DNA of 64,000 bases from an uncultured delta proteobacterium (GTDB lineage: Bacteria; Myxococcota_A; Polyangia; Polyangiales; B10-G4), in NCBI GenBank assembly GCA_963727445.1, contig CAVSGI010000009.1:32001-96000 (forward strand), read 5' to 3'. This document shows, piece by piece, positions 3,611 to 18,554 of this stretch (position 1 is the first letter of the stretch; every line of letters starts with the position of its first letter). The notes below the pieces were generated by a model. That model was not told the origin of the DNA, ran no database searches, and saw only the letters and a program-made list of their open reading frames with translations. The translations under genes and the position numbers were made by a program.

Positions 3611-3686
3611 CCGCCTTTGTCGTCTCGCGACGCCCGCCCGGTTGCTTACCGCGGGCGGCAGCGTATGGTCCGGCCACGGAGCTCCC

Positions 3687-4934
3687 TTGAAGACGATCCG
3701 AAAGCGCCGCGTGGTGATCACCGGGATCGGGATGGCGTCGCCCATCGGGCACGACCTCGACACGGTCAGCGATGCGCTGCGCCACGACCGCCACGGCATC
3801 CGCCACGTCTCCGAGTTCGAACGCATCGGCGAGCTGCAGACCCGACTCGCCGGCGTGGTCGACGACGTCGATCTCTCTCGGCGCTGGCCACGGCAGCGCA
3901 CGCGCTCGATGGGTCGCGTCGCGCTTCTCGCCGCGCACGCCACCGACGCTGCCCTCGAGGACGCCGGCATCGACGAAGAACGCCGCAGCGCGCCCGACGT
4001 CGGCCTCGCCTACGGCTCCACCCACGGCTCCTCGGTCGAGCTCGAGCGCTTCTGCCGCAAGGTGTTCGGCAACGACAGCCTCGAAGGGATCTCGTCCAGC
4101 TCCTATCTCCGGTTCATGAGCCACACCACCACCGCGAACCTCGCCGGCCTCTACGGCATTCGCGGGCGCGTCATCTCCACCTGCGCGGCCTGTGTGTCGG
4201 CGAGCCAGGCGGTCGGCGCCGGATACGAAGCCATCAGCGTCGGCGCACAGAAGGTGATGATCTGCGGCGGCTCCGAAGAGCTGCACTGGGTCCCGGCCGG
4301 CGTCTTCGACATCCTCTTCGCCACCAGTCATCGCTACAACGATCGTCCCCATCTCAGCCCGCGCCCCTTCGACGTGGCTCGCGACGGACTGGTGATCGCC
4401 GAAGGCGCCGGCACCGTCGTCCTCGAAGAGCTCGAGCACGCCAAGAAGCGCGGCGCGCACATCCATGCCGAGGTCCTGGGCTACGGTACGAACTGCGACG
4501 GCTCTCACCTCACCGCGCCGTCCGCCGAAGGCATGTCCGACGCGATGCGTCTCGCGCTACGGGACGCGGGTCTCGTAGCGAGCGACATTCAATACGTGAA
4601 CGCGCACGCGACCGCCACGCAGGTGGGCGACGTGAGCGAGAGCCACGCGACGCGGGCGGTGCTCGGCGAGAAGGTGCCGATCTCCTCGACGAAGGGATTC
4701 ACCGGCCATACACTCGGTGCCTGTGGAACGATCGAAGTCGCGCTCTGCATCGCGATGATGAGAGACGGTTTCCTCGCTCCCACGCGCAACCTCCGCGAGC
4801 TCGATCCCGAGTGTGCCTACCTCGACTACATCACCGATGAGCCGAGATACGAGACGGTCGATCGCATGATGAGCAACAACTTCGCCTTCGGCGGCATCAA
4901 CACCTCGCTGATCCTCGGCCGGTGCTCCGAATGA
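3687..4934 (+). CDS. Beta-ketoacyl-ACP synthase (FabF/aryl polyene KS type)
   Basis: RVVITGIG, catalytic Cys in AACVSASQA, NAHAT, GHTLGA, SNNFAFGG. Confidence 0.92.
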   Translation: MKTIRKRRVVITGIGMASPIGHDLDTVSDALRHDRHGIRHVSEFERIGELQTRLAGVVDDVDLSRRWPRQRTRSMGRVALLAAHATDAALEDAGIDEERRSAPDVGLAYGSTHGSSVELERFCRKVFGNDSLEGISSSSYLRFMSHTTTANLAGLYGIRGRVISTCAACVSASQAVGAGYEAISVGAQKVMICGGSEELHWVPAGVFDILFATSHRYNDRPHLSPRPFDVARDGLVIAEGAGTVVLEELEHAKKRGAHIHAEVLGYGTNCDGSHLTAPSAEGMSDAMRLALRDAGLVASDIQYVNAHATATQVGDVSESHATRAVLGEKVPISSTKGFTGHTLGACGTIEVALCIAMMRDGFLAPTRNLRELDPECAYLDYITDEPRYETVDRMMSNNFAFGGINTSLILGRCSE

Positions 4935-6172
4935 CCGAGGAGCGCCTCGACGTCGTGGTCCTCGGCGCGGGCCCCGCCGGCAGCACCTGTGCGCACCTCC
5001 TCGCGAAAGGCGGGGCGAAGGTCCGTGTGCTCGAAAAGGAGAGGTTCCCCCGCTTTCACGTGGGCGAGTCGCTTCTGCCCTGCGAGAACGCCATCTTCGA
5101 GCGGCTCGGCTTCGACATCGGGGGAGGTGATTACCTCTACAAGGCGGGCGCGGAGTTCATCGACGAGCGCACAGACGACATCGCCGACTATCCCTTCGCC
5201 GGCGGGCTCCCCGGAACGCCCTCCCACGCCTACCATGTCGAGCGCGCGCGATTCGATCACGAGCTCGCCCAGCTCGCGGCAAACGCGGGCGCCGAGATCC
5301 GTTTTGGCGTCAAGGTGCGGAACGTCGATGTTTCTGCCGACGAAGTGACCATCTCGGCCGAAGACGGGGAGCACCGCGCGCGCTTCGTGATCGACGCGAC
5401 CGGGCAGGACGCGTTCCTCGCCCGCCGCCGCAAGTCGATCCGTCCCATCAAGGACTTCGGCGTGGTGGCCGCGTTCGCACAATTTTCGGAGCTCTCACCC
5501 GAGTCGGTCGCCGAGCTGACCGAGACCGGCAACATCAAGATCCTGATCCACGACGACGGGTGGGCTTGGCTCATCCCCCTCACCGGTGGCCGCTTGAGCT
5601 TCGGCGTGGTCTCGCGCCGCGGCGGTCTGGGCACCGGCATGATCGACGCGGTGCAGTCGAAGTCGAAGCTCATCGCGCGCCTGACCCGCGGGGCGAAGCG
5701 CGCCGACCCGCAGCTCGTCCGCCACTTCGGCTACGTCAACGCCGAGCCCTACGGCGCGCGTTACGCGTGCATCGGGGATTCGGCGGCCTTCCTCGACCCC
5801 GTCTTCAGCTCCGGCATCTTCCTCGGGATGAAGAGCGCCGAGATGGCGGCGGACATTCTCGGACCCGCCCTCTCGGACGGGACCGAGGCGCGGCCGGATC
5901 TCCTCGATCCGGTGAAAGCGAAGATGCGCGAGGCCTACGTCGCCTTTGGGTCGCTGATCCGCAGCTTCTACTCGACCAATCTGGTCAAGCACTTCTTCTT
6001 CCACCCGGACCCGGAGCCCGAGCTCCGGGCGGGCCTCACCAGCATCCTCGCCGGCGACGTCTTCCGGGAAGACAACAAGTTCCAGAATTCGATCACCAAA
6101 GGCCGTCGCCTTTGGACGCCGGAATCCGTGGCCCAGGAGGAGCTCGGAGCGCGCTCGCCCCGCGGGCGTTGA
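4931..6172 (+). CDS. Flavin-dependent halogenase (carrier-protein substrate type)
   Basis: GAGPAG, FPRFHVGESL, WAWLIP (WxWxIP), GDSAAFLDPVFSSG. Confidence 0.85.
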   Translation: MTEERLDVVVLGAGPAGSTCAHLLAKGGAKVRVLEKERFPRFHVGESLLPCENAIFERLGFDIGGGDYLYKAGAEFIDERTDDIADYPFAGGLPGTPSHAYHVERARFDHELAQLAANAGAEIRFGVKVRNVDVSADEVTISAEDGEHRARFVIDATGQDAFLARRRKSIRPIKDFGVVAAFAQFSELSPESVAELTETGNIKILIHDDGWAWLIPLTGGRLSFGVVSRRGGLGTGMIDAVQSKSKLIARLTRGAKRADPQLVRHFGYVNAEPYGARYACIGDSAAFLDPVFSSGIFLGMKSAEMAADILGPALSDGTEARPDLLDPVKAKMREAYVAFGSLIRSFYSTNLVKHFFFHPDPEPELRAGLTSILAGDVFREDNKFQNSITKGRRLWTPESVAQEELGARSPRGR

Positions 6173-6233
6173 AGATTCGGGCTCGTAGGGCGGTCGTAGA
6201 CGCGTGTCTGCTTTCGGATTAACGTCACCCGCC

Positions 6234-7412
6234 ATGGCGAAGCGGCGAACGCCCCTGCCCATCACCGCCCATGCAGCGGTCAACGCCCTCGGCCGAAGCA
6301 CGGCGGAGGTGCTCGCGAACCTCGACGCGGGGAGGAGCGGCTTGCGCCCGCCCCCATTCGAGGTGCCCCTCACCACCGTCGTCGGCGCCATCCCAGGCGA
6401 GCTCGCGCCTCTGCCCTCCGAGTGGTCCGACTACGACTGCCGTCTCTCGCGCATGGCGAAGCTCGCCTACGACGAGGTCCACGCCGCGGTGGTGGCGGCG
6501 CGGGAACGCTGGGGCGCGGAGCGGGTGGCGGTGATCCTCGGCACCAGCACCGGCGGTCTCCACGCCACCGAGCGCGCGTATTTCCAGTGGCGTGACGACG
6601 GCACGGTGCCGGACGACTTCGACTTCCACCGCCAGCACGACTTCAACGGGTTGGGCGAGCTCCTCTCCAAGCTGTCCGGCATCGACGGTCCGACCTACAC
6701 GCTGAGCACCGCCTGTTCTTCGAGTGGCAAGGTGATGGCCGCGGCGTGGCGCTTGATCGAGGCGGACGTGATCGACGCGGCGCTGGTGGGCGGCGTCGAT
6801 AGCCTCTGTCGGATGACCCTTCAAGGCTTCCACGGTCTCGGCGTGCTCTCCGACACGCACTGCCGGCCCTTCAGCGCCGAGCGCAAGGGGATCAACATCG
6901 GCGAAGGGGCCGCCTTCCAACTCATCGAGCGCGAAGGCGACAGCGACGTGTGGGTCCTCGGCGTCGGCGAATCGAGCGATGCCCACCACATGAGCTCGCC
7001 CCACCCCGAAGGGCGCGGCGCGGCCGAAGCGATGAGCCGCGCGATGGCGCAGGCGGGCCTCGAGGTCGAGGACATCGATCACATCAACGCCCACGGCACC
7101 TCCACGCTGCTCAACGACAAGGCCGAGGCCATCGCCATCCACGCCCTCTTCGGCGATCGCGTTCCGGTGGTCTCCACCAAGGGATTCACCGGTCACCTCC
7201 TGGGCGCAGCCGGCGGGACCGAGGCCAGCTTCGCCATCCACGCCGTTCGGAGCAATCGCATCCCTGCGAACCTCGGCGTCGAGCCCAAGGATCCCGACGT
7301 CCACATCGACGTGCGCCCGGAGTCGCGCACGCAACGGGTGCGCCGCGTGCTCAGCAACAGCTTCGCCTTCGGCGGGAGCAACGTGAGCCTCCTGATCGGA
7401 GAGCGGCCGTGA
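6234..7412 (+). CDS. Beta-ketoacyl-ACP synthase (aryl polyene elongating KS type)
   Basis: STACSSS, GINIGEGAA, NAHGT, GHLLGAAG, SNSFAFGG. Confidence 0.92.
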   Translation: MAKRRTPLPITAHAAVNALGRSTAEVLANLDAGRSGLRPPPFEVPLTTVVGAIPGELAPLPSEWSDYDCRLSRMAKLAYDEVHAAVVAARERWGAERVAVILGTSTGGLHATERAYFQWRDDGTVPDDFDFHRQHDFNGLGELLSKLSGIDGPTYTLSTACSSSGKVMAAAWRLIEADVIDAALVGGVDSLCRMTLQGFHGLGVLSDTHCRPFSAERKGINIGEGAAFQLIEREGDSDVWVLGVGESSDAHHMSSPHPEGRGAAEAMSRAMAQAGLEVEDIDHINAHGTSTLLNDKAEAIAIHALFGDRVPVVSTKGFTGHLLGAAGGTEASFAIHAVRSNRIPANLGVEPKDPDVHIDVRPESRTQRVRRVLSNSFAFGGSNVSLLIGERP

Positions 7413-8161
7413 TCGGCGTCGACGGGATCGGGCTCTGGGCCCCGGGCTTCGCGAGCCTCGAGGCGTTTCGTGCGGGCGAGGCCGACGAGTCCGTCACCAT
7501 GCCCAGGTGCGCCGTCGCCAACGCTCGCGCCAAGCGCGGGGTGAGCCGCATCGCGCGGATGCTCGGTGAGGTCGTTCAGCAGGCGGCCGAGGACGCGGGC
7601 GCCGACCTCTCCGAGGTGCCGACCGTGTACGCGTCGGCCTGGGGTGAGATCGACATCATGATCAAGCTCCTCGACCAGATCGCGGACGGCGAGGTGGGCC
7701 TGAGCCCGCTGCGCTTCAAGCACAGCGTCCACAACTCCGCTTCGGGCCTGGTCTCCATCGCCGCCGAGAACCGCGGCTTCTCGACGGCCATCGCCGCCGG
7801 GCGCCGCACCTTCGAGCAGGGCGTCCTCGAGGCGCTGTCGCTGCTCCGATCTTCGGACGGTGAGCGGGTGATCCTCGCGGTCGCGGAAGACGAGCTGCCG
7901 ACGCCCCTCGATCGCTTCGGGCGCTACGCGCCGCTCGCCATCGGCCTCTGCTTCGCCAAGACGCCGCGCGAGGGCGCGCACGGCACGATCAGCTTCCCGA
8001 AGCGCGCGAGCGAGGTCCTTCGTCCGACGCTGCCCGACGCCTACGCGGCGAACCCCACCGCTCACGCGCTGCCCCTGCTCGATGCGCTCGCCTCGGGAGA
8101 GCCCGTGAAGGCGCTGGCGCTCTCGGCCGCCGATCGACCGTTCGCGATCGACGTCGGCTGA
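7409..8161 (+). CDS. Chain-length-factor-like KS partner
   Basis: VYASAWGE, LSPLRFKHSVHNSASG; no catalytic Cys; coupled to the KS. Confidence 0.8.
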   Translation: MIGVDGIGLWAPGFASLEAFRAGEADESVTMPRCAVANARAKRGVSRIARMLGEVVQQAAEDAGADLSEVPTVYASAWGEIDIMIKLLDQIADGEVGLSPLRFKHSVHNSASGLVSIAAENRGFSTAIAAGRRTFEQGVLEALSLLRSSDGERVILAVAEDELPTPLDRFGRYAPLAIGLCFAKTPREGAHGTISFPKRASEVLRPTLPDAYAANPTAHALPLLDALASGEPVKALALSAADRPFAIDVG

Positions 8162-8238
8162 TTGTCGACGCCGGTACGGCCGGGGGTGGGGTGTGGCGCG
8201 CTTCGCCTCCGTGTATCCTCGCCACTTCGGCAGAGGAA

Positions 8239-9120
8239 ATGCACTTCGACACGGAAGCCACGCGCCGGCGGATCGACCAGGCGCTCGCGACCGCCCTGGA
8301 TCAGGGTGAGCGCCAGGCGCCGCCCAAGCTCGCCGCCGCCATCCGTCACGCGGTCTTCCCGGGCGGCTCGCGCACCCGTCCCCTGCTCTGCATCGCCGTC
8401 GCCGAAGCCAATGGCGGAGGCGACCCGGCCCTCGTCGACGCGTTCGCCGCGGCCCTCGAGCTCCTGCACTGCGCGTCGTTGGTGCACGACGATCTCCCCT
8501 GTTTCGATGACGCGCCCACGCGACGCGGAGAGCCATCGGTTCATGCGGTCCACGGCGAGGCGCTCGCGGTTCTCGCGGGCGATGCACTGATCGTCTCGGC
8601 GTTCGAGGTGCTCGGCCGCGCTTCGCAGCACGCGCCCGCGCAGCTCCCGGCGCTCCTCGCCACCCTCGCCCGCGCCGCGGGCGCCTCCGAAGGGCTGGTG
8701 GCCGGGCAGGGTTGGGAAGCGGAGGACGGCGTCGCCCTCGAGCGCTATCACCGCGCGAAGACCGGTGCGCTCTTCGTGGCGGCCGCCACGGGTGGAGCCC
8801 TTTCGGCCGGCGTGGACGCCGAGCCGTGGCAACTTGTGGGCGTGCATCTCGGCGCGGCCTATCAGGTCGCGGACGACCTCCTCGACGCGCACGCCACCGA
8901 AGAGTCCGCGGGCAAGCCCACGGGTCGTGACGCTGCGCTCGGGAGACCGAGCGCGGTGGACTCCCTCGGCACGGAGGCGGCGCTCGCTCGGCTTCGCGCG
9001 CTCGTCGCGCAGGCAGCGGACGCCGTTCCCGCGTGCGACGGTCAGCCGATGCTCCGTGACCTCGTCGAAGAGATGGCGGAGCGCTTGGTTCCCGCGAGCC
9101 TCAAGCAGAGCGCTGCCTGA
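8239..9120 (+). CDS. crtE: Geranylgeranyl diphosphate synthase (polyprenyl synthetase)
   Basis: GGSRTRP, LVHDDLPCFD..RRG, KTGALF, YQVADDLLD, GKPTGRD. Confidence 0.85.
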   Translation: MHFDTEATRRRIDQALATALDQGERQAPPKLAAAIRHAVFPGGSRTRPLLCIAVAEANGGGDPALVDAFAAALELLHCASLVHDDLPCFDDAPTRRGEPSVHAVHGEALAVLAGDALIVSAFEVLGRASQHAPAQLPALLATLARAAGASEGLVAGQGWEAEDGVALERYHRAKTGALFVAAATGGALSAGVDAEPWQLVGVHLGAAYQVADDLLDAHATEESAGKPTGRDAALGRPSAVDSLGTEAALARLRALVAQAADAVPACDGQPMLRDLVEEMAERLVPASLKQSAA

Positions 9121-9128
9121 AGGCGGGG

Positions 9129-10577
9129 CTACGGCTTCGCGAGTAGCGCCGAGAGCGCGTGTGCCGTCGCGTCGGCGCGCAGGAGATGATGGGTGGGGGT
9201 GACCGGCCACGCGCCGTGCGCGGTCGCTGGATCGAGCGACGCGTGAAGGCTTCCGTTCGCGAGGAGCTGATGCGCGCGCAGAAAGTCGCGCCCGCGTTCG
9301 GCGACGCGTCGCGCATCCGCGCGCGGCGAGGCGGCGAGGAGCTCGGTGGCGAGGGCGGTGACGGGGATCTCCGGCAGCCGCTCCAGGCCGAAGCCGCCCC
9401 GATGCGGCGGCGCCTTTCGAAAGCGCTGCATCAGGGCTTTTTCGACGCGGCGCTCGGCACGCGCGTCACCCAGGGCGCGGGCGGCCGCGAGGAGCCACGG
9501 GTTTTCCCCGTGGGGATTTTCGAAGTCGAGGGTCACGCGCGCCATCACGCGCGCAGGGGCTCTGTTGCCAGCGGCTGCCACCACCTGGGCGGCGTGCCAG
9601 GGATTTTCGGCGAGGGGCCGCGCGCGATGCGCCTGCTCGACGAGCGCCTCGGTGAGCGGCAGGCCGGCGAGGGTCGCGAGGGCCAGGGTCGCCGCGCGGC
9701 GCGCTGCGTCCGTGGGAAATCCGTCGACGCGTGCTCCCGAGAGCGCGGCGTCGATCGCTTCGGCGAGCCAGCGCTTCGCCTTTCCGATACGCGCGCGCCG
9801 GCCCCCGAAGGCCGCGAGGGCGGCGATCACCGAGGCCGCGCGCCCGTGGAGCATCATGCCCGTCTCGAGGCGTCGACCGGCGCGCGCGTCGTAGCCGAAG
9901 CAGATCCGTCCCTCCGCGTCGATGCAGCCCGCGAGGAACTCGGCGGCGGCCGCTGCGCCATCGCTCTTGCGCGCGCTGCCTCCATCGAGCCGCGCGGTGA
10001 GGTGCTGCGCCTCGAAGATCACGACCTCGTCGTCGAAGGCAAGAGAGCGACCCGCCTTGCGTGCGAGGGCGTCGAGGAAGGCATCGGCGCTTGTCATGAG
10101 CCTGTCGCGCCCGACCTGCGGCAGAAGGATCGCGCTCCGCTCAGCAGGCGCGGCGAAGGCGAGGCCGTGAGTCCCGAGCTCGAGCGTCTCGGCGATCCGC
10201 CCGACGGAGCAGGGCCGCGGCGCGATGGGATACGAAACGTCCGCAGAGACCGATGCGCGATCGCCCGGAGCAATGGACGGACCGAGCCGGCGGTCGTTCA
10301 GCGCCGCCAGGAACGCACGCGCGAGTCGCTCCCCCGGCTTGCCCTCCGCGCTGCCCTGGCAGCCGCGGAGCCCCCCACGCACGTAGAGTGAGACGAAGGG
10401 GGTCGCGTCGGGGGCGGCGGGCGGCTTCGGCCATCGATCGAGGCTCTGCTGGAAGCGGAGCAGCGCGCCCAGGTAGCGCGCCGCGCTGTTCCGCGCCCGC
10501 GTCCCGAGCGGGCGCGCGAGGGCCCGATAGGGGAAGGCGGTGGCCTTCAGTCGACGGCGCGCTGTCGATCTCGCCAC
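9129..10577 (-). CDS. AMMECR1-domain protein fused to a helical (prenyltransferase/cyclase-like) C-terminal domain; start uncertain
   Basis: FVSLY..GGLRGCQG, LGTHGL, LLPQV, LARKAG; C-terminus RGRDFLRAHQL...GAWP...RADATAHAL. Confidence 0.75.
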   Translation of the reverse strand: MARSTARRRLKATAFPYRALARPLGTRARNSAARYLGALLRFQQSLDRWPKPPAAPDATPFVSLYVRGGLRGCQGSAEGKPGERLARAFLAALNDRRLGPSIAPGDRASVSADVSYPIAPRPCSVGRIAETLELGTHGLAFAAPAERSAILLPQVGRDRLMTSADAFLDALARKAGRSLAFDDEVVIFEAQHLTARLDGGSARKSDGAAAAAEFLAGCIDAEGRICFGYDARAGRRLETGMMLHGRAASVIAALAAFGGRRARIGKAKRWLAEAIDAALSGARVDGFPTDAARRAATLALATLAGLPLTEALVEQAHRARPLAENPWHAAQVVAAAGNRAPARVMARVTLDFENPHGENPWLLAAARALGDARAERRVEKALMQRFRKAPPHRGGFGLERLPEIPVTALATELLAASPRADARRVAERGRDFLRAHQLLANGSLHASLDPATAHGAWPVTPTHHLLRADATAHALSALLAKP

Positions 10578-11410
10578 GCTGCGCCAGCGTCCATGCCCAA
10601 CGCATCGAGCGCCGGCACGATCTGTTCTTCGACGACCTCGGCGAGGGTCTCGCGCTGGGGCGCCGTCGCGAGGACGCCGAGCGCCCGGGCGGCTTTCTTC
10701 GAGCCCCGCGGCGCGTCTCGGCCGCGACTGAAGCGCACCTCGAGGTTTCGGACGTGCTCGCGCACGATCGCCGCGATGCGCGCGTGCTCGCTGGGCGTCC
10801 AGCGCGGCGCCCGCCACTCCAGGTAGTACCAACCCAGTCGCGCGTGCCGGATCTCGTCGGCCACGATCGTCTCGAAGAGCGGGCGGGCCACCGGGTCCGA
10901 CGCCTCGGCGGCGCAGGCGGCGAGGAGCGCCGCGGAGATCGTCTCGCCGATGGCGCTGGTGATCGTCATCACCCGATCGAGCTCCTCGAGGGCGAAGATC
11001 GCGGCCACCCCCCTGGGGCGCATCCGCTGGACGTCGAGCTCCACCTCGTCGCGCTCTTTGCCCGCGCAGAGCGCGGCCATGTGTACCGCGAGCTCGGCGT
11101 GGGCGATCTCGTCCGAAGGGATCGCGGCGGCGGCGGCGATGATGTCGAAGGGAGCCCCGTGATGCGCGAGGGAGCCGGTGAGCCGTGAAAAGCCCTCCAC
11201 CGCCAGATACTCGCCGGTCGCCAGCATCCGCTGTGCGTCGTAGGCCAGCGCGAGGGCGGGCTCGGTGTAGTCGCCTCGCTCGAATCGCTCCCAGGGGATC
11301 CGGCGGCGTTCGCGCCGACCCTTGCGACGCTCGACTTCCGAGGCGAGCTGGCGCGCGAGGGGCGTGTCAGTGACGGTGCGGCGAAAGGGGCTGCGTGCGG
11401 TCGTGTGCAC
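10547..11410 (-). CDS. Ferritin-like diiron protein
   Basis: Ligand pattern GEY...DEIAH...GET...DEIRH. Confidence 0.8.
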   Translation of the reverse strand: MHTTARSPFRRTVTDTPLARQLASEVERRKGRRERRRIPWERFERGDYTEPALALAYDAQRMLATGEYLAVEGFSRLTGSLAHHGAPFDIIAAAAAIPSDEIAHAELAVHMAALCAGKERDEVELDVQRMRPRGVAAIFALEELDRVMTITSAIGETISAALLAACAAEASDPVARPLFETIVADEIRHARLGWYYLEWRAPRWTPSEHARIAAIVREHVRNLEVRFSRGRDAPRGSKKAARALGVLATAPQRETLAEVVEEQIVPALDALGMDAGAAWRDRQRAVD

Positions 11411-11414
11411 GGCG

Positions 11415-11780
11415 TCAGGCGTCGGCGGAGCCGTCCATCGAGCCATCCATCGCGCCGTCGGTGGAGCCGTCCATCGCGCCGTCGGTGGAGCCGTCCAACG
11501 AACCGTCGAACCCGGCGTCGGCGACTGAGAAGCCGCTGTCGGCGACCGAGAAGCCGGTATCGGCGACCGAGAAACCGACGTCCGCGACACCGGGGCTCGA
11601 GTCGAAGCCGATGTAGGCCACGCTGGCGACGGAGAAGGCGCTGTCGGCCACGGTCGGCGTGGGCTCGTCATCACCGCATCCCACCGCCAAGAGCGGTGGA
11701 GCCGCCGCCAGCGAAAGGCTCAGGACCGTGCGCGGCACGATCTTCGGAATGTGGCTACGTCGGCGCTTCTTCTTCGCCAT
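11415..11780 (-). CDS. Small lipoprotein / candidate precursor peptide with six VAxxxF repeats
   Basis: GGAGG RBS, basic N-terminus, lipobox LAVGC; VADSAF, VAYIGF, VADVGF, VADTGF, VADSGF, VADAGF, then DGSx/DGAM tail. Confidence 0.8.
   Translation of the reverse strand: MAKKKRRRSHIPKIVPRTVLSLSLAAAPPLLAVGCGDDEPTPTVADSAFSVASVAYIGFDSSPGVADVGFSVADTGFSVADSGFSVADAGFDGSLDGSTDGAMDGSTDGAMDGSMDGSADA
11418..11590. repeat. Coding tandem repeats (21-bp VADxGFS units; 24-bp DGSTDGAM units)
   Basis: Repeated CGGCGACCGAGAAGCCG and GGAGCCGTCCATCGCGCCGTCGGT units. Confidence 0.85.
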
Positions 11781-11880
11781 ATCGACCTCCCCGTCGTAGT
11801 GACGCTAACACATTCGAAATGCCCGTTGGGCCAGGGTGGGTGCAGACGCCTGCGAGCCGTGGCATCCTCGCTTCGTGGCG

Positions 11881-13506
11881 ATGCAGTGGGGATCGCTCGC
11901 GAGGGTGGGGCTGGTGGCGGCGTGCGCGCTGGCGCTGTCGAGCTGTAATGGCCTCATCGGCGACCCGGGCAGCTCCGGCGGAGGACCAGGCGGCCCGGGC
12001 GGCCCCACCGGGCCTGGCACCAATCCTGGAGACCCGCGCTTCGAGGTGCGCATGTGGCGCCTCTCGCCCGCGCAGTTCGACGGCGAGGTCGCGCGGCTCT
12101 TCGGCGACGGCGCGCCCGAGGTCGATCTTCCCGCCGGTGCCTCCGAGCACGGCATCACCAACATCTCCGCGACGGCGCGCATCGATCTGGGCAATGCGTC
12201 GCTCTTCGTCGAAGGCGCGCGGACGGTCGCCACCTGGGCCGCAGCCAATGGAGCCACCACCTCGCGCTGCACCGACTACGGCATGCCCGCGTGCATCGAC
12301 ACCGTGCTCGGCTGGCTTCCCGAGAGCGCCTTTCGCCGTCCGGTGACCGACGAAGAGACGACCGCGCTCCGCACGCTCTTCGAAGACCTCTCCCGCGACT
12401 ACGACTACGACTTCGCCTACGCCGGCGTGGTGCGCGCGGTGCTCCTCTCGCCGCACTTTCTCTATCGATCGGAGCTCGGCGACCTGAGCGACGGCATCGT
12501 CACGATGACGGACTACGAGATCGCGAACCTCCTGTCCTTTTCGATCACCGACCGCGCCCCGGACGACATGCTGCTGGCCGACGCAGCCGCCGGACGCCTC
12601 CGCGAGGCCGACGCCCGAGAGGCGCACGCGCGACGCCTGATGGAGGACTCCGGCGACGTGTGGCAGCGCTTCTTCTGGGAGTGGCTCGCCATGTCCACCC
12701 TCGAGAGTCAGGGCAACGAGGTCGGGCTCCCGAGCGCGCTGGTGACCGAGATGCAGGAGGAGCACCGGGCTTTCGTCACCGACGTGATCGTGACCCAGCG
12801 CGGCACTTTGAGCGACCTCCTCACCTCCACGCGCACCTTCGCGAGCCCGGAGCTCGCTGCGTACTACGGCGCCGCACACTCGGGGAGCGGCGTCGAGGCC
12901 ATCGACCTCGACTTCAGCCAGCGCGCCGGCCTCCTGACCCGCGCCGCCTGGCTCGTCTCTCATGGAAAGCGCGGCCGGGCGAACGTCGTGCGGCGCGGCA
13001 TGGGCATCTACCGCGACGCGATGTGCAACGACATCGCGCCGCTCATGATCGATCTCCAGGCGGCGCTCAGCGAGATCGTGTCGCCCGACGCGCCGGTCTC
13101 CGAGATCGTGCAGGCGCGCGGCAACGACCCGACCTGCGGCTCCTGTCACGCCCTCGCCGATCCCATCGGCCTCGCCTTCGAGAGCTATGCCGGTGACGGC
13201 ACCTGGCAGACCGTCTACGCCAGCGACGGCCTGCCGGTGGAGACGGGGATCGAGCTGGAAGGCGTGGGCCCGCTGCCCGACGCCATGGCTCTGTCGGCGG
13301 TGCTCGCCGACGACGTGAATTTCCAGCACTGCATGGTCCAGCGCTTCGTGCACTTCTTGATGGGGATCGACGTCGGCTCCCCCGACGCCGTTCGCTGGTC
13401 GAGCGACGCCCTGTCGGCCTTCGTCGAGAGCGGCGGCTCCTTCGAGGAGCTCCTTGTCGCCATCGTGCGCGACCCCTCCTTCGTCGAGCGGAGGAACAAC
13501 CCATGA
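11881..13506 (+). CDS. DUF1592/DUF1588/DUF1595-type lipoprotein with CxxCH
   Basis: Lipobox LSSC, MWRLSPAQF, AFRRPV, VLLSPHFLYRSE, RAGLLT, CGSCH..ADPIGLAFE. Confidence 0.85.
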   Translation: MQWGSLARVGLVAACALALSSCNGLIGDPGSSGGGPGGPGGPTGPGTNPGDPRFEVRMWRLSPAQFDGEVARLFGDGAPEVDLPAGASEHGITNISATARIDLGNASLFVEGARTVATWAAANGATTSRCTDYGMPACIDTVLGWLPESAFRRPVTDEETTALRTLFEDLSRDYDYDFAYAGVVRAVLLSPHFLYRSELGDLSDGIVTMTDYEIANLLSFSITDRAPDDMLLADAAAGRLREADAREAHARRLMEDSGDVWQRFFWEWLAMSTLESQGNEVGLPSALVTEMQEEHRAFVTDVIVTQRGTLSDLLTSTRTFASPELAAYYGAAHSGSGVEAIDLDFSQRAGLLTRAAWLVSHGKRGRANVVRRGMGIYRDAMCNDIAPLMIDLQAALSEIVSPDAPVSEIVQARGNDPTCGSCHALADPIGLAFESYAGDGTWQTVYASDGLPVETGIELEGVGPLPDAMALSAVLADDVNFQHCMVQRFVHFLMGIDVGSPDAVRWSSDALSAFVESGGSFEELLVAIVRDPSFVERRNNP

Positions 13507-14990
13507 CGAAGAAGAAGCAGGGCTTCGGACGGCGCCGCTTCGGAGCGATCGTGGGTGGGGCCGCCGCGGGTCTCGCCCTGACCCCGTCCTTGATGCGTCG
13601 CCTTCGGGTGAAGGCCCAACCGCCCATGGGTCCGATGCGCTTCTTGGCGGTGCGCACGCCCCACGGGGTCGATCGCGACTTCTGGATCCCCCGCAACGCC
13701 GACGGGAGCGAGCCAGCCACCGCAGACGAGGCGCTCTCCGGCCTGACCTGGGACTACGAGGGCGGGATCCTGCTGCCGCTCATGCCGTGGCGCGATCAGA
13801 TCACGGTCCTCGACGGCCTGGACACGCAGGTCTGCAAGGAGGGCACGCGGCCCGGGGTGCGCACGTTCCACGGGCACAACGAGCAGGGCACGATGCTCAC
13901 CGGCGCACAGCCGCCGGAGGATCGGATGGGGAACTTCGACAACCACCCCTCCCTCGATTTCTACCTCCACGGACGCATTCCTGCGCCCGCGCTGATCACC
14001 GCCAGCGTCGAAGGGACCGGCTCGTGGAAGTGCATGAGCTACGACGCCGCCGGGCTGCCGCGGACGCCGGAGTCCGATCCGCGCGCGGTCTTTCGAGCGG
14101 CCTTCCCCTCGGACTTCGCCCCGCCGGACCCTGGCGAGCCCACCGTCGACTACACCGCGGGTGAGCAGCAGATCTTCGGCTACGACGACGCACAGCTCGC
14201 GCGCCTGCAAGCGGTGCTGCGCCACGGCGAGCTCGACAAGATCAACGCCCATCGCGAGGCGATGCAGGCGCTCACGCCGAGCGGCATGGGCACGACCATG
14301 CTCGGGGCCTGCATGACCAGCGGGATGGACGTGCCCACCGTCGACGGCAACGTCGGCGACTACCTCGGCGTCGAGCGTGTGACGCGCGCGCACTCACAGG
14401 TGATCGCCCAGGCCTTCGCCTGCGGGCGGGCGCGCATCGCGACGCTACAGATCCTCAACGACTATCCGAACTACTACACCGACGTCCCGGAGGTGCGGGC
14501 CTCGGGCGCGATCGGGATCTACGGCGACACCTACCGCTTTCACGAGAACCTCGTGCACGACTACTGGGGCGCGTCGGGGGCGATGCTCGACACGCTGCGC
14601 GTGGGGTACCTCGCCGGTCTGCGCTGGGCGGCGGGGCACTTCGCGGCGGTGCTCGAGGAGCTCGACTCGGTGGTCGATCCCCTCGATCCGTCGGGCGGGT
14701 CGATCCTCGATAACACCGTCATCTTCTGGCACAACGAATTCGGCCATGACGGCCACGACAACCAGCACACCCGCCACCCTGCGGTGATCGCCGGCGGTGG
14801 CGGACGCACCCTGCGCCTCGGCCGCTACCTGCGTCTGCGCAACATCGACAGCAGCGAGCGGGTCCCCCACAACAAGCTCCTGGTGAGCCTGGCGCACGCC
14901 ATGGGCGTGACCGACATCAACTACTTCGGCGATCGGGACCTGACGGACCGGCCCGAGTATCAGGGCCCGCTCGAGCCACTCATGGCGTGA
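13503..14990 (+). CDS. DUF1552-family Tat-exported protein
   Basis: GRRRFG Tat-like signal, AFACGRARIATLQ, SILDNTVI, IAGGGG, HNKLLVSLAHAMG; coupled to the DUF1592-type gene. Confidence 0.82.
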   Translation: MTKKKQGFGRRRFGAIVGGAAAGLALTPSLMRRLRVKAQPPMGPMRFLAVRTPHGVDRDFWIPRNADGSEPATADEALSGLTWDYEGGILLPLMPWRDQITVLDGLDTQVCKEGTRPGVRTFHGHNEQGTMLTGAQPPEDRMGNFDNHPSLDFYLHGRIPAPALITASVEGTGSWKCMSYDAAGLPRTPESDPRAVFRAAFPSDFAPPDPGEPTVDYTAGEQQIFGYDDAQLARLQAVLRHGELDKINAHREAMQALTPSGMGTTMLGACMTSGMDVPTVDGNVGDYLGVERVTRAHSQVIAQAFACGRARIATLQILNDYPNYYTDVPEVRASGAIGIYGDTYRFHENLVHDYWGASGAMLDTLRVGYLAGLRWAAGHFAAVLEELDSVVDPLDPSGGSILDNTVIFWHNEFGHDGHDNQHTRHPAVIAGGGGRTLRLGRYLRLRNIDSSERVPHNKLLVSLAHAMGVTDINYFGDRDLTDRPEYQGPLEPLMA

Positions 14991-15422: not shown

Positions 15423-16154
15423 ATGACGACGAAACCGAGAGCACTGGTCACGGGCGCGAGCCGGGGAATTGGCGCGGCCATCGCCAAGGACCTCGCCGCC
15501 GCCGGTCATCCCGTCATCCTCAACTACCGGAGCAACGAAGCGGCTGCCAAGGAAGTGAAGGCCGCCATCGAGCAAGCCGGGGGCACCGCCACGCTCGCGC
15601 CCTTCGACGTAGGCGACTTCGCCACCACCTCGCGCGCGATCGAGGAGCTCCTCGCCGCGGACGCAAACCCGATCGGTGTTCTGGTGAACAACGCCGGCGT
15701 CGCGCGCGACAACGTCTTCGCGATGATGAGCCTCGACGAGTGGCACGCGGTCATCCGCACCACACTCGACGGATTCTTCAACGTCACCCAGCCGTTGGTG
15801 ATGCAGATGATGCGCAAGCGCTGGGGACGCATCATCAACCTCAGCTCGATCAGCGGGGTCACGGGCACGCGCGGCCAGGTGAACTACTCGGCCGCCAAGG
15901 CCGGCATCATCGGGGCCACCAAGGCGCTGTCGAAGGAGTGCGCCAAGCGCAAGGTCACGGTGAATTGCGTGGCCCCGGGGCTCATCGACACCGAGATGAT
16001 CGCGGATGTCCGAATGGACATCGTCAAGCCCATGATCCCGATGCAGCGGGTGGGCACGCCGGAGGAGGTCTCGGCCCTGGTGGCTTTCCTGGCCAGCGAT
16101 GCCGCGAGCTACATCACCGGCCAGGTCATCGGCGTCAACGGCGGTTTCGCGTGA
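15423..16154 (+). CDS. fabG: 3-oxoacyl-ACP reductase
   Basis: TGASRGIG, NNAG, YSAAK. Confidence 0.92.
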   Translation: MTTKPRALVTGASRGIGAAIAKDLAAAGHPVILNYRSNEAAAKEVKAAIEQAGGTATLAPFDVGDFATTSRAIEELLAADANPIGVLVNNAGVARDNVFAMMSLDEWHAVIRTTLDGFFNVTQPLVMQMMRKRWGRIINLSSISGVTGTRGQVNYSAAKAGIIGATKALSKECAKRKVTVNCVAPGLIDTEMIADVRMDIVKPMIPMQRVGTPEEVSALVAFLASDAASYITGQVIGVNGGFA

Positions 16155-16227
16155 ATCCGGGAGGCGTCCCGGCGGTCTGACTGGTCGGCTTGCCTCCCCC
16201 CTTTTCCCACCTTAGAAAGCCTTCGCC

Positions 16228-16506
16228 ATGAATCAAGACCTCGAGAAGCAGCTCAAGGAAGTCATCGTCGAGTCGCTGATGCTCGAAGACGTCTCGCCCG
16301 AGGACATCGACTCCGAGGAGGCGCTCTTCGTCGACGGCCTGGGTCTCGACTCCATCGACGCCCTCGAGCTCGCCATCGCCATCGACAAGAAGTTCGGCGT
16401 GCGCATCAAGCCCGACGACGAGGACACCCGGAAGATCTTCGCGAGCGTTCGGAGCCTCGCGAGCTACCTCGCCGGACAGATGGCGGGCAGCGCCGCCGCT
16501 TCCTGA
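16228..16506 (+). CDS. Acyl carrier protein (aryl polyene type)
   Basis: GLGLDSIDALEL phosphopantetheine site. Confidence 0.93.
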   Translation: MNQDLEKQLKEVIVESLMLEDVSPEDIDSEEALFVDGLGLDSIDALELAIAIDKKFGVRIKPDDEDTRKIFASVRSLASYLAGQMAGSAAAS

Positions 16507-16518
16507 GGGCCGGCCCGC

Positions 16519-17148
16519 GTGCGCGTCTTCGCCACGGTGACGAGCGTCATCCTGACCCTCGTCTATCCCGTCGCGGTGTACTACGCGCTGACGCACTACT
16601 CGCCGCGCATGGTGGGCTTGCTCGGTCTGGCGATCGTCATCCCGCTCTTCGCGCTCCGCTTCCGCAACGCCGACCGCGCGCACCTCTTGGTCGTGCTCCG
16701 CGTTCCTCTGATCATCCTCGCCCTGCTCCTCTGCGGCGCCATCTTCGACGACCAGCGCTTCGTCCTCGCGATGCCGGTCCTGATCAGTCTCGCGCTCCTC
16801 GTCACCTTCGGCGCGACGCTCCGCAGCCCGGGACCGACGATGATCGAGCGCTTCGCCCGGATGACCGAGCCGGAGCTGTCGGAGGCCCAGGTGCGCCACT
16901 GCCGCCAGGCCACCCTCGCCTGGTGCGTCTTCTTCCTCGTCAATGCCGCCATCGCGGCGACCCTGGCCGTCCTCGAAATGACCGCCTGGTGGGCCGCCTA
17001 CACCGGGGGGATCGCCTACGCCGCGATGGGTGTGATGTTCGCGGGCGAATTCGTGATTCGGCGCTATAGATTCCGCGAGTACGGGCGGGGCCCCCACGAT
17101 CGGCTCCTCGCGCTACTCTTCCCGCCTCGCACCGTGAGAGATCGATGA
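16519..17148 (+). CDS. Membrane protein of aryl polyene clusters (COG4648-like)
   Basis: Several TM helices, TMIERFAR, YTGGIAY, GEFVIRR. Confidence 0.8.
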   Translation: MRVFATVTSVILTLVYPVAVYYALTHYSPRMVGLLGLAIVIPLFALRFRNADRAHLLVVLRVPLIILALLLCGAIFDDQRFVLAMPVLISLALLVTFGATLRSPGPTMIERFARMTEPELSEAQVRHCRQATLAWCVFFLVNAAIAATLAVLEMTAWWAAYTGGIAYAAMGVMFAGEFVIRRYRFREYGRGPHDRLLALLFPPRTVRDR

Positions 17149-18554
17149 GCGACCTTCCGCTTCCCCTCGGCAAGACACAACCCGGCGACGTCGTGGCCTT
17201 CGGCCCGCGGGGAGACGTGACGGCGCGCGAGGTCCTCGGGGGGGCGCGCGCCGTGGCCTCGGCGCTTCCCAAGGCCGACGTGGGCGACCAGGTGATCGTC
17301 CTGTGCCGGGACCGGCTCGCCTTTGCCGCTGCGCTCTTCGGCGCCTGGGAGGCGGGCTTCGGAGTGGCCCTGCCCCCCAACGCCCAGCCCGAGACCGTGA
17401 AGGCGATCCGTCATCGCCCGGAGATCGTCACCGTCCTCCACGACGGGGAAGGGCCGAAGGGCATCGACGTCCGCGGCATCCTCGACGCCGCACCACCCGA
17501 CGACGCGCCCCTGTCGCCCATCGCCGCGGAGCGCCATCTCGCCACCGTATTCACCTCCGGCTCCACCGGCGAGCATCGCGCCTGCCCCAAGACCGGCGCC
17601 CAGCTCCTGGGCGAAGTGAAGACGCTCCTCGCTGCGTTCCCCGAGGCGGCCGGCGCCCGCGTGCTCTCGGTGGTGCCGGCGCATCACATCTACGGCTTGC
17701 TCTTCGGCGTGCTCGTGCCCACCTGCGGAGGGGGCGCGTTCCATCGCGACGGACCGCGCGACGTCGAAGGTCTCGCGAAGGCGCTGAGCGAAAACGTACA
17801 CGTTTTGGTGAGCGTGCCCGCGCATCTGCGCAGCCTGCGCTTCGCGGAGGAAGGCCTCTTGCCGAAGGTCCAGCGCGTCTTCTCTTCGGGGGCGCCGCTG
17901 CCCGCGGACACCGCGAAGGACCTCGACAAGCGCGCGGGCTGGACAGTCACCGAGGTGCTGGGTTCCACGGAGACCGGAGGGATCGCCTGGCGCGATCGGA
18001 GCGCCGCGCCGGCCACGCCCTGGCAGCCCTTCCCCGGTGTCACGGTCGACGCAGGCGATGGCGAGCTGATGCTCCTCGAGTCGCCGCTCCTCTCGGCGGA
18101 CCTGCCCCAGCCCTACATCGGCGGCGACCGGGTCAAGCCTCTCCCCGATGGCCGCTTCGAGCACCTGGGCCGCGCCGACGGCGTCCTCAAGGTCGGCAGC
18201 AACCGCGTGTCGGTGGCCGAGCTCGCCGCGCGCCTGGCCGAGATCGACGGCGTGAACGACGCCGCGGTCCTGCCGGTGGAGGTGGGCGGCGCGCGCGGGG
18301 TGGAGACCTGGGCGGCGCTCGTAGCACCGGGGCTCGACGCCAAGACGATCCGCACGGCCCTCCGCAAGTGGCTCGCGCCGGTGGTCATCCCGCGCCGCTT
18401 TCGTTTCGTCGACGCGCTGCCGCGGCAGGAGAGCGGCAAGCTCCGGCGGGAGGACCTGCTCTCACTCTTCGAGACGCCGATGGAGGACGATCGCGAGGGC
18501 GTGACCTCGCCGGGGGTGCTCAGCGCACCGGAGAGGTCCGGGGGCGACGCGTGA
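17145..18554 (+). CDS. AMP-dependent acyl/aryl-ACP ligase
   Basis: FTSGSTG, HHIYGLLFG, SSGAPL, GSTETGG, GRADGVLK, LPRQESGK. Confidence 0.88.
   Translation: MSDLPLPLGKTQPGDVVAFGPRGDVTAREVLGGARAVASALPKADVGDQVIVLCRDRLAFAAALFGAWEAGFGVALPPNAQPETVKAIRHRPEIVTVLHDGEGPKGIDVRGILDAAPPDDAPLSPIAAERHLATVFTSGSTGEHRACPKTGAQLLGEVKTLLAAFPEAAGARVLSVVPAHHIYGLLFGVLVPTCGGGAFHRDGPRDVEGLAKALSENVHVLVSVPAHLRSLRFAEEGLLPKVQRVFSSGAPLPADTAKDLDKRAGWTVTEVLGSTETGGIAWRDRSAAPATPWQPFPGVTVDAGDGELMLLESPLLSADLPQPYIGGDRVKPLPDGRFEHLGRADGVLKVGSNRVSVAELAARLAEIDGVNDAAVLPVEVGGARGVETWAALVAPGLDAKTIRTALRKWLAPVVIPRRFRFVDALPRQESGKLRREDLLSLFETPMEDDREGVTSPGVLSAPERSGGDA

Follow-up and report, generated by a model that had tools for sequence, protein, structure and literature searches.

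A candidate RiPP-like cassette of Polyangia comprising a repeat lipopeptide, a ferritin-like diiron protein and an AMMECR1-toroid protein

We analysed a 64-kb stretch of DNA (hereafter the window) lying on contig C9 of G000, the 9.47-Mb genome (about 70% GC) of an uncultured delta proteobacterium of the Polyangia, and focused on three close-set genes, pep, fer and amm, that occupy positions 9129-11780 of the minus strand. They encode, respectively, a short repeat-containing lipopeptide, a ferritin-like protein and a protein made of an AMMECR1 domain fused to an (alpha/alpha)6 toroid. That pep, fer and amm form a functional trio, in which the peptide belongs to the enzymes, is well supported by the comparison of related loci. 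From this comparison of genes we further propose, with modest confidence, that the trio is a self-contained cassette similar to those of the peptides made on ribosomes and modified after translation (RiPPs), in which Fer, together with the toroid and AMMECR1, would oxidise each core of the peptide in the cytoplasm, and the lipoprotein pathway would then anchor the product. A bolder proposal, namely that the cassette stands for an additional class of RiPPs and that its previously unclassified ferritin-like diiron oxygenase, working with a toroid and AMMECR1, would oxidise every V-A-x-x-G/A-F/Y unit prior to lipid anchoring, is put forward tentatively.

The limits of the three genes were set by combining a frame analysis of the GC content at third codon positions (GC3) with a listing of the start codons, and they bear out the compact minus-strand three-gene operon that an initial annotation, made from the sequence of the window, had proposed at 9129-11780. 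The pep gene (11415..11780, minus strand) encodes 121 amino acids; its ATG start codon is preceded, 7 nt on the 5' side, by a GGGGAGG Shine-Dalgarno sequence, its stop codon lies at 11415-11417, and its GC3 reaches 0.8-0.93 in that frame only. The fer gene (10547..11410, minus strand; 287 amino acids) begins with a GTG located 4 nt past the pep stop codon, and the amm gene (9129..10577, minus strand; 482 amino acids), which also begins with a GTG, overlaps the 3' end of fer by 31 nt. Longer open reading frames (ORFs) were rejected for both enzymes: the 375-codon version of fer starting from 11674 overlaps pep in a low-GC3 frame, the 567-codon version of amm has an upstream extension devoid of coding GC3, and the alignments of orthologs support neither of them. 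A scan for promoters and terminators between 8900 and 12100, on both strands, returned no match and is uninformative at 72% GC. Among sequencing runs, no RNA run was listed, and four DNA metagenome runs accounted for small shares.

The Pep peptide begins with a leader/signal peptide (residues 1-34; 11679..11780, minus strand), in which a basic KKKRRR stretch and the IVPRTVL motif of the family are followed by a hydrophobic segment and the LAVG residues, and which reads MAKKKRRRSHIPKIVPRTVLSLSLAAAPPLLAVG-C35 up to the lipobox cysteine. As LAVG-C35 matches the PROSITE PS51257-type pattern, Cys35 (11676..11678, minus strand) is the predicted lipidation site and would be residue +1 of the mature lipopeptide, and the 121-residue peptide with its basic leader and LAVG-C lipobox, as initially described, was recovered in full. 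Next come six non-overlapping VAxx[G/A][F/Y] units, spanning V44 to F91 (11508..11651, minus strand): VADSAF, VASVAY, VADVGF, VADTGF, VADSGF and VADAGF, four of which lie within GFSVADx heptads, with a seventh unit, VAYIGF, overlapping the others. The count of six units announced for this peptide is therefore right, but the VAxx(G/A)F formula holds for only five of them, since VASVAY ends with a tyrosine. The C-terminal part (residues 92-121; 11418..11507, minus strand) is an acidic tail of DGSxDGAM repeats. Units and tail correspond to tandem repeats of the DNA, of 21 nt (3.4 copies, 11517-11588) and 24 nt (2.9 copies, 11440-11508), respectively. The mature peptide would comprise 87 residues, including 17 D or E and neither K nor R. 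Searches of Pfam and NCBIfam with the peptide of the window returned no family, only generic lipoprotein-signal matches below threshold.

Using a profile of Fer orthologs over species-representative genomes we collected 63 other loci, all from metagenome-assembled genomes (MAGs), the relatives being Polyangia-type myxobacteria. One to three peptide genes stand upstream of fer in 58 of the 63 loci, that is, in 58 of the 59 that possess at least 300 nt of DNA upstream of fer (L027, L058, L067 and L074 possess less), and L070 is the only locus with enough upstream DNA yet no peptide. A pattern search gave the peptide in 53 loci, and inspection added five others, the leader of which is slightly different (L032, L042, L045, L050 and L052). 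Two or three peptide genes occur in tandem at 11 loci. These ORFs are homologous and share the same leader, with protein identities as low as about 25-40%. The question raised by the initial annotation, whether the homologs of the enzymes have a conserved repeat peptide upstream, thus receives a positive answer.

To describe the peptide family we aligned 70 peptides on their leader (69 and that of the window), leaving out three false or partial ORFs (L031:3125, L038:3128 and L076:3302) and a leader-only piece (L016:3571). The leader, whose conservation greatly exceeds that of the remainder of the peptide, has the consensus (K/R)(K/R)RR-(T/S)-(A/R)-[I/F]-V-P-(R/K)-x-V-[F/L]...V-[V/I]-P...[A/G]-C-[G/S]. 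In its [IF]-V-P motif the proline is found in 70 of the 70 peptides and the valine in 68, and the cysteine follows 17-32 residues downstream. This leader is not generic for the signal peptides of the organism, because a relaxed version of its pattern has three matches in the whole genome and only that of the window precedes a real ORF, the tails of the other two being 3 and 8 amino acids long. Of the 70 peptides, 40 were scanned against NCBIfam; they match no family and returned generic lipoprotein signals below threshold only.

The mature parts have next to nothing in common beyond short units, repeated 2 to about 10 times per peptide, whose flavour depends on the clade. Besides the GFSVADx / FSVAAPxD type of the window, the core types of the clades are GVAAVAYCCFEA; FLGVAAVAYPAYEAG; [Y/F]IVLA[I/V]GAFGG with Gly-rich spacers; PPVVAA[Y/M] with Pro-rich spacers; FIALAQQGFD; and GVAYRGY. 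Altogether, the [VLI]Axx[GA][FYM] motif occurs 178 times in the 70 peptides, as compared to 4.0 times expected from shuffled sequences, with at least one occurrence in 58 peptides and at least two in 44. The Val/Ala pair is the most constant part of the unit, and the occurrence of Met at the aromatic position in the Pro-rich types argues against an obligatory modification of a ring. As judged from these sequences, the gene-encoded precursor, with its conserved leader and variable cores, adjacent to genes of putative modifying enzymes, matches this part of the generic definition of a RiPP system.

Fer possesses a complete set of diiron ligands, since E67, D100-E101-xx-H104, E156 and D185-E186-xx-H189 are invariant in the alignment of 30 orthologs (30/30), in agreement with the full E...DExxH...E...DExxH set initially noticed in this second gene. 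Its AlphaFold2 (AF2) model, which has a mean predicted local distance difference test score (pLDDT) of 92.9, is a helical bundle with the fold of the ferritin-like diiron oxygenases. The VIA structure comparison gave Z scores of 17.6 for 6d9f, 17.2 for 4mud, 16.8 for the R2 protein of ribonucleotide reductase (RNR R2), 16.5 for the hydroxylase of soluble methane monooxygenase (sMMOH) and 16.1 for R2lox, and the top Foldseek match was PaaA/PaaC (E 5e-3). On the basis of its ligand set and modelled four-helix core, Fer can be assigned to the ferritin-like diiron-carboxylate superfamily. No Pfam or NCBIfam family was found above its cut-off: Fer scores 15.0 bits with DUF455 (gathering cut-off 34.3; weak matches in 24 of the 30 orthologs) and 13.8 bits with AurF (gathering cut-off 29.6; weak matches in 13 of the 30). 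Similarly, a search of the PDB sequences with the Fer profile gave a designed helical bundle and noise only, and the clusters closest to Fer in the ESM Atlas are unnamed Myxococcota proteins. Fer shares its fold (VIA Z 14-17.6) and its E...(D)ExxH...E...(D)ExxH ligands with the ferritin-like diiron oxygenases and oxidases, such as PaaA/PaaC, aldehyde-deformylating oxygenase, sMMOH, RNR R2, R2lox and AurF/CmlI, from which it differs by a low sequence identity (8-19%) and by its presumed substrate, a peptide. R2lox joins a Val and a Tyr of its own chain by an ether cross-link, a possible chemical precedent for the reaction of Fer.

The Fer family has motifs of its own, namely an N-terminal RRxLTxTPLARxHE, followed by HARLGWYYLxWRAPxW and GRDAP. 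The first of them forms a tail (residues 9-24; window 11339-11386), in which R11, T14, T16, P17, L18 and R20 are invariant; it is modelled with low to medium confidence, as the mean pLDDT of the first three N-terminal blocks of ten residues is 53, 76 and 72, and no hydrophobic stretch follows the motif. The peptide, the toroid or AMMECR1 might dock onto this tail. In the ortholog alignments, neither Fer nor Amm has a signal peptide.

The fusion of an AMMECR1 domain (LRGCxG) to a helical toroid-like domain, as initially claimed for Amm, is upheld by Pfam, Foldseek and the AF2 model examined with VIA. The AMMECR1 domain (about residues 20-200; 9978..10520, minus strand) matches PF01871 with 53.6 bits (cut-off 25; E 2.5e-14) and, in Foldseek, 1zq7 (E 2.6e-8) as well as 1vaj and 1wsc; the cysteine of its LRGCQG motif (Cys73) is invariant in 34 out of 34 orthologs. 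Amm has the fold and LRGC motif of the AmmeMemoRadiSam protein A/AMMECR1 family and, similarly to it, a genetic tie to a (predicted) redox metalloenzyme, but it differs from AmmeMemoRadiSam protein A in that a toroid is joined to its AMMECR1 domain, which is moreover coupled to a diiron protein. It scores 47.7 bits with TIGR04335 (AmmeMemoRadiSam system protein A), the cut-off of which is 99, and neither Memo nor radical-SAM (S-adenosylmethionine) genes are found among the ORFs of the window scanned between 3.6 and 18.6 kb.

The other half of Amm is an (alpha/alpha)6 toroid (about residues 204-482; 9132..9968, minus strand), modelled by AF2 with a pLDDT of 93. Its best VIA matches are 5z3a (Z 19.5; root-mean-square deviation 3.4 over 250 aligned residues), 8zg0 (Z 19.0) and 8paj (Z 18.9), so that glycosidases, class II terpene cyclases and epimerases match it nearly equally. 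As many of the top matches of this model lie within about 1 Z unit, they single out no particular family. The six-hairpin fold is shared, with Z scores of 15-19.5, with the (alpha/alpha)6 toroid enzymes at large (terpene cyclases, GH88/GH105 and other glycosidases, and 2-epimerases), and the toroid of Amm has, like them, a conserved set of polar residues. The conserved residues are W214, R246, R266, W327, H328, Q331, E403, T407, Q437, D469 and H473, among which R246, H328, Q331, E403, D469 and H473 stand out as a polar set; the conservation of this His/Glu/Asp/His/Arg group points to a second site, either active or for binding. Two identities considered for the toroid found no support. A class II terpene cyclase would have only the fold in common with it, as the DxDD motif is absent from the protein of the window and present in 2 of the 34 orthologs, and as TIGR03463 scores 22.8 for a cut-off of 851. 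LanC cyclases are also (alpha/alpha)6 toroid enzymes; such an assignment is unsupported, since the toroid has no conserved cysteine for a LanC-type zinc site, while the absence of LanC entries from the structure matches listed does not argue against it. A homolog search with the toroid part gave seven scored matches, six of which have the Pfam AMMECR1 domain and three of which are named 'AMMECR1 domain-containing protein'; with seven matches, this search says nothing about other architectures.

The initial annotation also had the three genes acting together, an idea that the distribution of both halves of Amm sustains along with that of the peptide genes, so that its proposal of two enzymes modifying the VAxxxF cores is supported in part. 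Using tblastn with both halves over the 63 fer loci, we found AMMECR1 and the toroid downstream of fer in 43 loci, the toroid only in seven, an AMMECR1 half followed by the end of the contig in one, and neither half in 12, two of which end at fer. AMMECR1 is not obligatory, as shown by the seven loci that have a toroid without it. In six of these seven, Fer and the toroid are encoded by a single ORF, and at L027 (2-2332) Fer, AMMECR1 and the toroid follow each other in a single stop-free frame of 777 codons that is open at the 5' end of the contig; this is the only triple fusion seen, and an assembly indel is possible there. Among the representatives at 50% identity, four of the six best Fer matches are 571-594 amino acids long, a length that would fit Fer fusions. 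An all-versus-all comparison of the ORFs of the 63 loci found no other conserved family, and thus no protease, transporter, regulator or reductase.

The core types of the peptides follow the phylogeny of Fer. On a quick IQ-TREE tree of Fer (64 rows), the core types require 18 label changes, versus 44.5 after shuffling, and there is one starred Fer clade for each of four types (Pro-rich, PAYEAG, LDVAY and FIALAQQGF). Two genomes have two cassettes (L050/L052 and L061 in JAICTZ...; L045 and L060 in DATJXW...), and in both of them each Fer paralog retains the core type of its own clade.

The Fer orthogroup comprises 42 clusters at E <= 1e-30, 2,019 at 1e-10 and 7,281 at 1e-3 (out of 1.84 billion representatives), with more than 500 members in the set clustered at 90%, nearly all of them named 'hypothetical protein'. 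An ortholog (E <= 1e-40) is present in at least 8 of 401 sampled genomes of the class, a lower bound since six candidates were scored per genome. The G000 genome has 10 further, distant paralogs of Fer. One of them (294 amino acids, 26% identity), on contig C8 (about 331574-333097, plus strand), comes directly after two tandem genes of small lipoproteins of 107 and 99 amino acids, with LIGC/FIGC lipoboxes and DAPVANLLPP / VANLLPPPD repeats, and with no AMMECR1 or toroid downstream. Those at C1 (about 32.8 kb) and C10 (about 422.7 kb) stand behind Cys-rich small lipoprotein ORFs, that at C26 (about 6.9 kb) behind another lipoprotein-type ORF, and several Fer paralogs of the relatives are also preceded by short lipoprotein-type ORFs. 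At C20 (about 172 kb), C6 (about 577 kb) and C10 (about 534 kb) the ferritin-like domain is the C-terminal part of proteins of 469-526 amino acids, which have their own N-terminal signal/lipobox, one of them of a twin-arginine-like type (RRRLLLS...SACGG). These contexts suggest a wider partnership between ferritin-like proteins and lipoproteins, part of which is perhaps extracytoplasmic.

Four singular loci of the collection deserve a description. At L016 (3571-3942, equivalent to the L014 7874-8250 region, G023), which harbours the closest ortholog of the trio, the peptide gene is split into a 41-residue leader ORF and a 75-residue repeat ORF in another frame, owing to a frameshift or else to a repeat that was wrongly assembled. 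The L053 cassette, in which amm is broken into several frames, comes from a record titled as a Gemmatimonadaceae MAG, i.e. from outside the Myxococcota; wrong binning, a transfer or the decay of this copy could account for it. Lastly, L067 and L070 have a fer-toroid fusion located after two genes named by eye, first that of a multi-pass membrane protein and then that of a flavoprotein similar to geranylgeranyl reductases; a computed comparison shows that this flavoprotein resembles the halogenase-like ORF of the window. In no other clade may the enzymes do without a peptide encoded next to them.

From these data we propose the following scheme, in which the role of Pep as the substrate, the order of events, the lipidation and all of the chemistry are what we infer. 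Pep would be translated as a precursor, whose leader doubles as a lipoprotein signal peptide and is followed by several short [V/L/I]-A-x-x-[G/A]-[F/Y/M] cores lying in acidic or Gly-rich spacers. As Fer and Amm lack signal peptides and would be cytoplasmic, whereas Pep is built for export, they could meet only before export. In the cytoplasm, Fer, in a complex with the toroid and mostly with AMMECR1, would use O2 to modify each core, most likely by hydroxylating it or by cross-linking two positions of the unit. The modified precursor would then be exported, cut at Cys35 by signal peptidase II and acylated on that cysteine, to yield a lipopeptide that is anchored in the membrane and modified at several places. 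The general lipoprotein pathway would perform both leader removal and export, so that neither a protease nor a transporter of its own would be needed.

In addition to the pairing of pep with fer, the specificity of the leader, the co-diversification, the fusions, the location of the enzymes and the absence of any other conserved gene family, all described above, four lines of evidence speak for this RiPP-like scheme. First, the anatomy of the cassette, as far as it can be read from the genes, appears to be that of a RiPP system: a family-specific leader, repeated variable cores, tandem precursor genes, and an adjacent putative metallo-oxidase with fused domains. Second, Fer is probably competent for catalysis, as all six diiron ligands are invariant and the predicted fold is that of an O2-activating oxygenase. 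Third, the C8 paralog of Fer, which also follows two tandem lipopeptide genes, with a different repeat, may represent a similar arrangement. Fourth, the same logic has a published precedent in the DAG-RiPPs (PMC13056109). The DAG-RiPP precursors carry signal-peptidase-II signals, their cores are modified by cytoplasmic MNIO (DUF692) iron enzymes, and their lipobox cysteine is triacylated after this modification by the general lipoprotein pathway, as exemplified by DybA/DybH and NedA/NedBC, where NedA harbours three EGKCG units.

Both systems have a short precursor with an N-terminal lipoprotein signal and a lipobox cysteine (predicted, in the case of Pep) and with repeated short cores, and an iron enzyme without a signal peptide (putatively, in the case of Fer) that acts before export, with no dedicated protease or exporter (PMC13056109). 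They differ in several respects from the description given there. Fer is a ferritin-like four-helix bundle whereas their enzyme is an MNIO TIM barrel; the partners are here a toroid and AMMECR1, in contrast to proteins of the MbnC/DUF2063 type; and our cores are mostly Cys-free V-A-x-x-G/A-F/Y units, unlike the Cys-centred MNIO cores. Furthermore, the leader described here adds a conserved [IF]-V-P-(R/K)-x-V motif, and our system is described from genome sequences. The initial annotation had regarded a diiron oxidase beside a multicore precursor as a RiPP hallmark, an equation that does not hold: in PMC13056109, which mined MNIO neighbourhoods only, the hallmark refers to MNIO/DUF692 TIM barrels, not to ferritin-like proteins. 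Its other statement, that no characterised pathway has this trio, stands as far as the trio itself is concerned, since we did not find it in the literature, but overlooks the close logical precedent of the DAG-RiPPs. On the evidence of that article the concept of a lipoprotein-anchored RiPP has been known since 2025-26, and the novelty lies only in the set of enzymes and in the family of peptides. In the literature searched, neither AMMECR1 nor a ferritin-like protein is linked to a RiPP precursor, and the peptide family is undescribed; a look-up of terms in PMC13445942 returned no description of the trio.

Several observations weigh against the RiPP-like scheme, the support for which is comparative throughout. 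Regarding the peptides, only 38 of the 70 have a strict PROSITE-type lipobox at the chosen cysteine, the others deviating by E/Q/N/P at positions -2 to -4; 12 of the 70 have no [VLI]Axx[GA][FYM] match; and the cores are not uniform, as the Pro-rich VVAA[Y/M] types have Met in place of the aromatic residue, so that no single target residue is evident across them. Regarding the enzymes, the AMMECR1-toroid protein is absent beside fer in 10 loci that have at least 1.1 kb of downstream DNA. In G002 the amm ortholog (43% identity) lies on another contig, in the 9-kb L078 locus (G002:C14:22787-24307), the ORF list of which comprises neither fer nor a family-type peptide; in this genome an amidohydrolase-like gene (named by eye from its translation) follows fer. 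The cassette encodes no reductase partner, no ferritin-like RiPP maturase turned up in the literature searched, and the paralogs fused to a signal/lipobox hint that some members of the Fer family are located outside the cytoplasm. Finally, the correlation between the core types and the Fer tree is weaker evidence than it looks, since neighbouring genes are inherited together.

The genes surrounding the cassette bear on another interpretation. On both sides of it (3642-9120 and 15423-18554, plus strand), the window contains a cluster of the lipid type, with two beta-ketoacyl synthases, a flavoprotein similar to Trp halogenases, a PF13723 ketosynthase-like protein, a polyprenyl synthase of the farnesyl/geranylgeranyl diphosphate (FPP/GGPP) type, a short-chain dehydrogenase/reductase (SDR) and an AMP-ligase, a content reminiscent of the clusters for aryl polyenes or flexirubins. 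Divergently from pep (11836-14990, plus strand) come a DUF1592/DUF1588/DUF1595/DUF1585 gene and a DUF1552 (HXXSHH) gene, a pair that recurs at just one or two of the other loci.

It is conceivable, though rather unlikely in our opinion, that Fer, the toroid and AMMECR1 act on a small molecule or a lipid, such as an envelope lipid of the isoprenoid or aryl-polyene type, and that Pep is a co-transcribed, unmodified and disordered envelope lipoprotein participating in the same process. The location of the cassette inside this cluster, with its polyprenyl synthase, its ketosynthases and its halogenase-like flavoprotein, fits such a role, but these neighbours are not conserved at the 63 other loci (no match for the polyprenyl synthase and 0-2 for the others), and we rejected the cluster as a part of the system. 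Likewise, the presence of class II terpene cyclases among the best structural matches of the toroid (8zg0 and 8paj) has to be set against the missing DxDD motif and the low TIGR03463 score reported above. The nearest fold relatives of Fer (PaaA, aldehyde-deformylating oxygenase and sMMO) do use small molecules; however, a separate substrate leaves unexplained both the family-specific leader of the peptides and the fidelity of the Fer paralogs to their core types.

We regard as still less probable that Pep, rather than being a substrate, acts as a partner anchored by its lipid, which would bind Fer (and the toroid/AMMECR1) through its repeated hydrophobic units, and would either tether the enzymes or carry them by hitch-hiking on the twin-arginine translocation (Tat) pathway, towards another substrate in the envelope. 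The leader often has an R-R pair (R at -4 in 36 of the 70 peptides and at -3 in 41) with [IF]-V two residues further on, which is loosely Tat-like, but 9-16 of the 70 peptides have K in place of R at the twin-arginine positions, the spacing is RR-x-x-hydrophobic instead of RR-x-hydrophobic, and none of the 40 peptides scanned (out of 70) matches an NCBIfam Tat-signal model at E <= 1. Lipid-tethered extracytoplasmic ferritin-like domains do seem to exist in the organism, as three distant paralogs of the same genome have this domain behind their own signal/lipobox, one with the RRRLLLS...SACGG sequence; these fused proteins, however, match Fer only in part (about residues 60-225, E 1e-5 to 1e-9). 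The variable number of repeats would also fit a multivalent docking, but one expects hypervariable spacers, and peptide genes that diverge in tandem, from substrates more than from subunits with a structural role. As to the idea that pep is a chance frame in the 72% GC DNA upstream of fer, high-GC genomes are indeed rich in spurious long ORFs, of which the window has dozens, but this is so improbable as to be effectively refuted by conservation (a same-leader homolog in the 58 loci and the excess of the core motif over shuffles), in addition to the strong Shine-Dalgarno sequence, the ATG and the GC3 profile of the pep frame only.

If the RiPP-like interpretation of pep, fer and amm is true, Fer would be the first ferritin-like RiPP maturase, and a new enzyme class together with its partner domains would enter RiPP biosynthesis, extending the idea of RiPPs that use the lipoprotein pathway beyond the MNIO enzymes. 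The AMMECR1 domain is conserved from archaea to humans, where it is linked to an X-linked syndrome, and to our knowledge it has no known biochemical function; the cassette would provide its first defined biochemical setting, in a tractable bacterial system of three genes. Beyond this cassette, the approximately 2,000 clusters of related ferritin-like proteins, several of which stand beside small lipoproteins, would mark a larger hidden family of modified lipopeptides. For the Polyangia, which are rich in natural products and mostly uncultured, the trio would be a new marker of surface or periplasmic chemistry.

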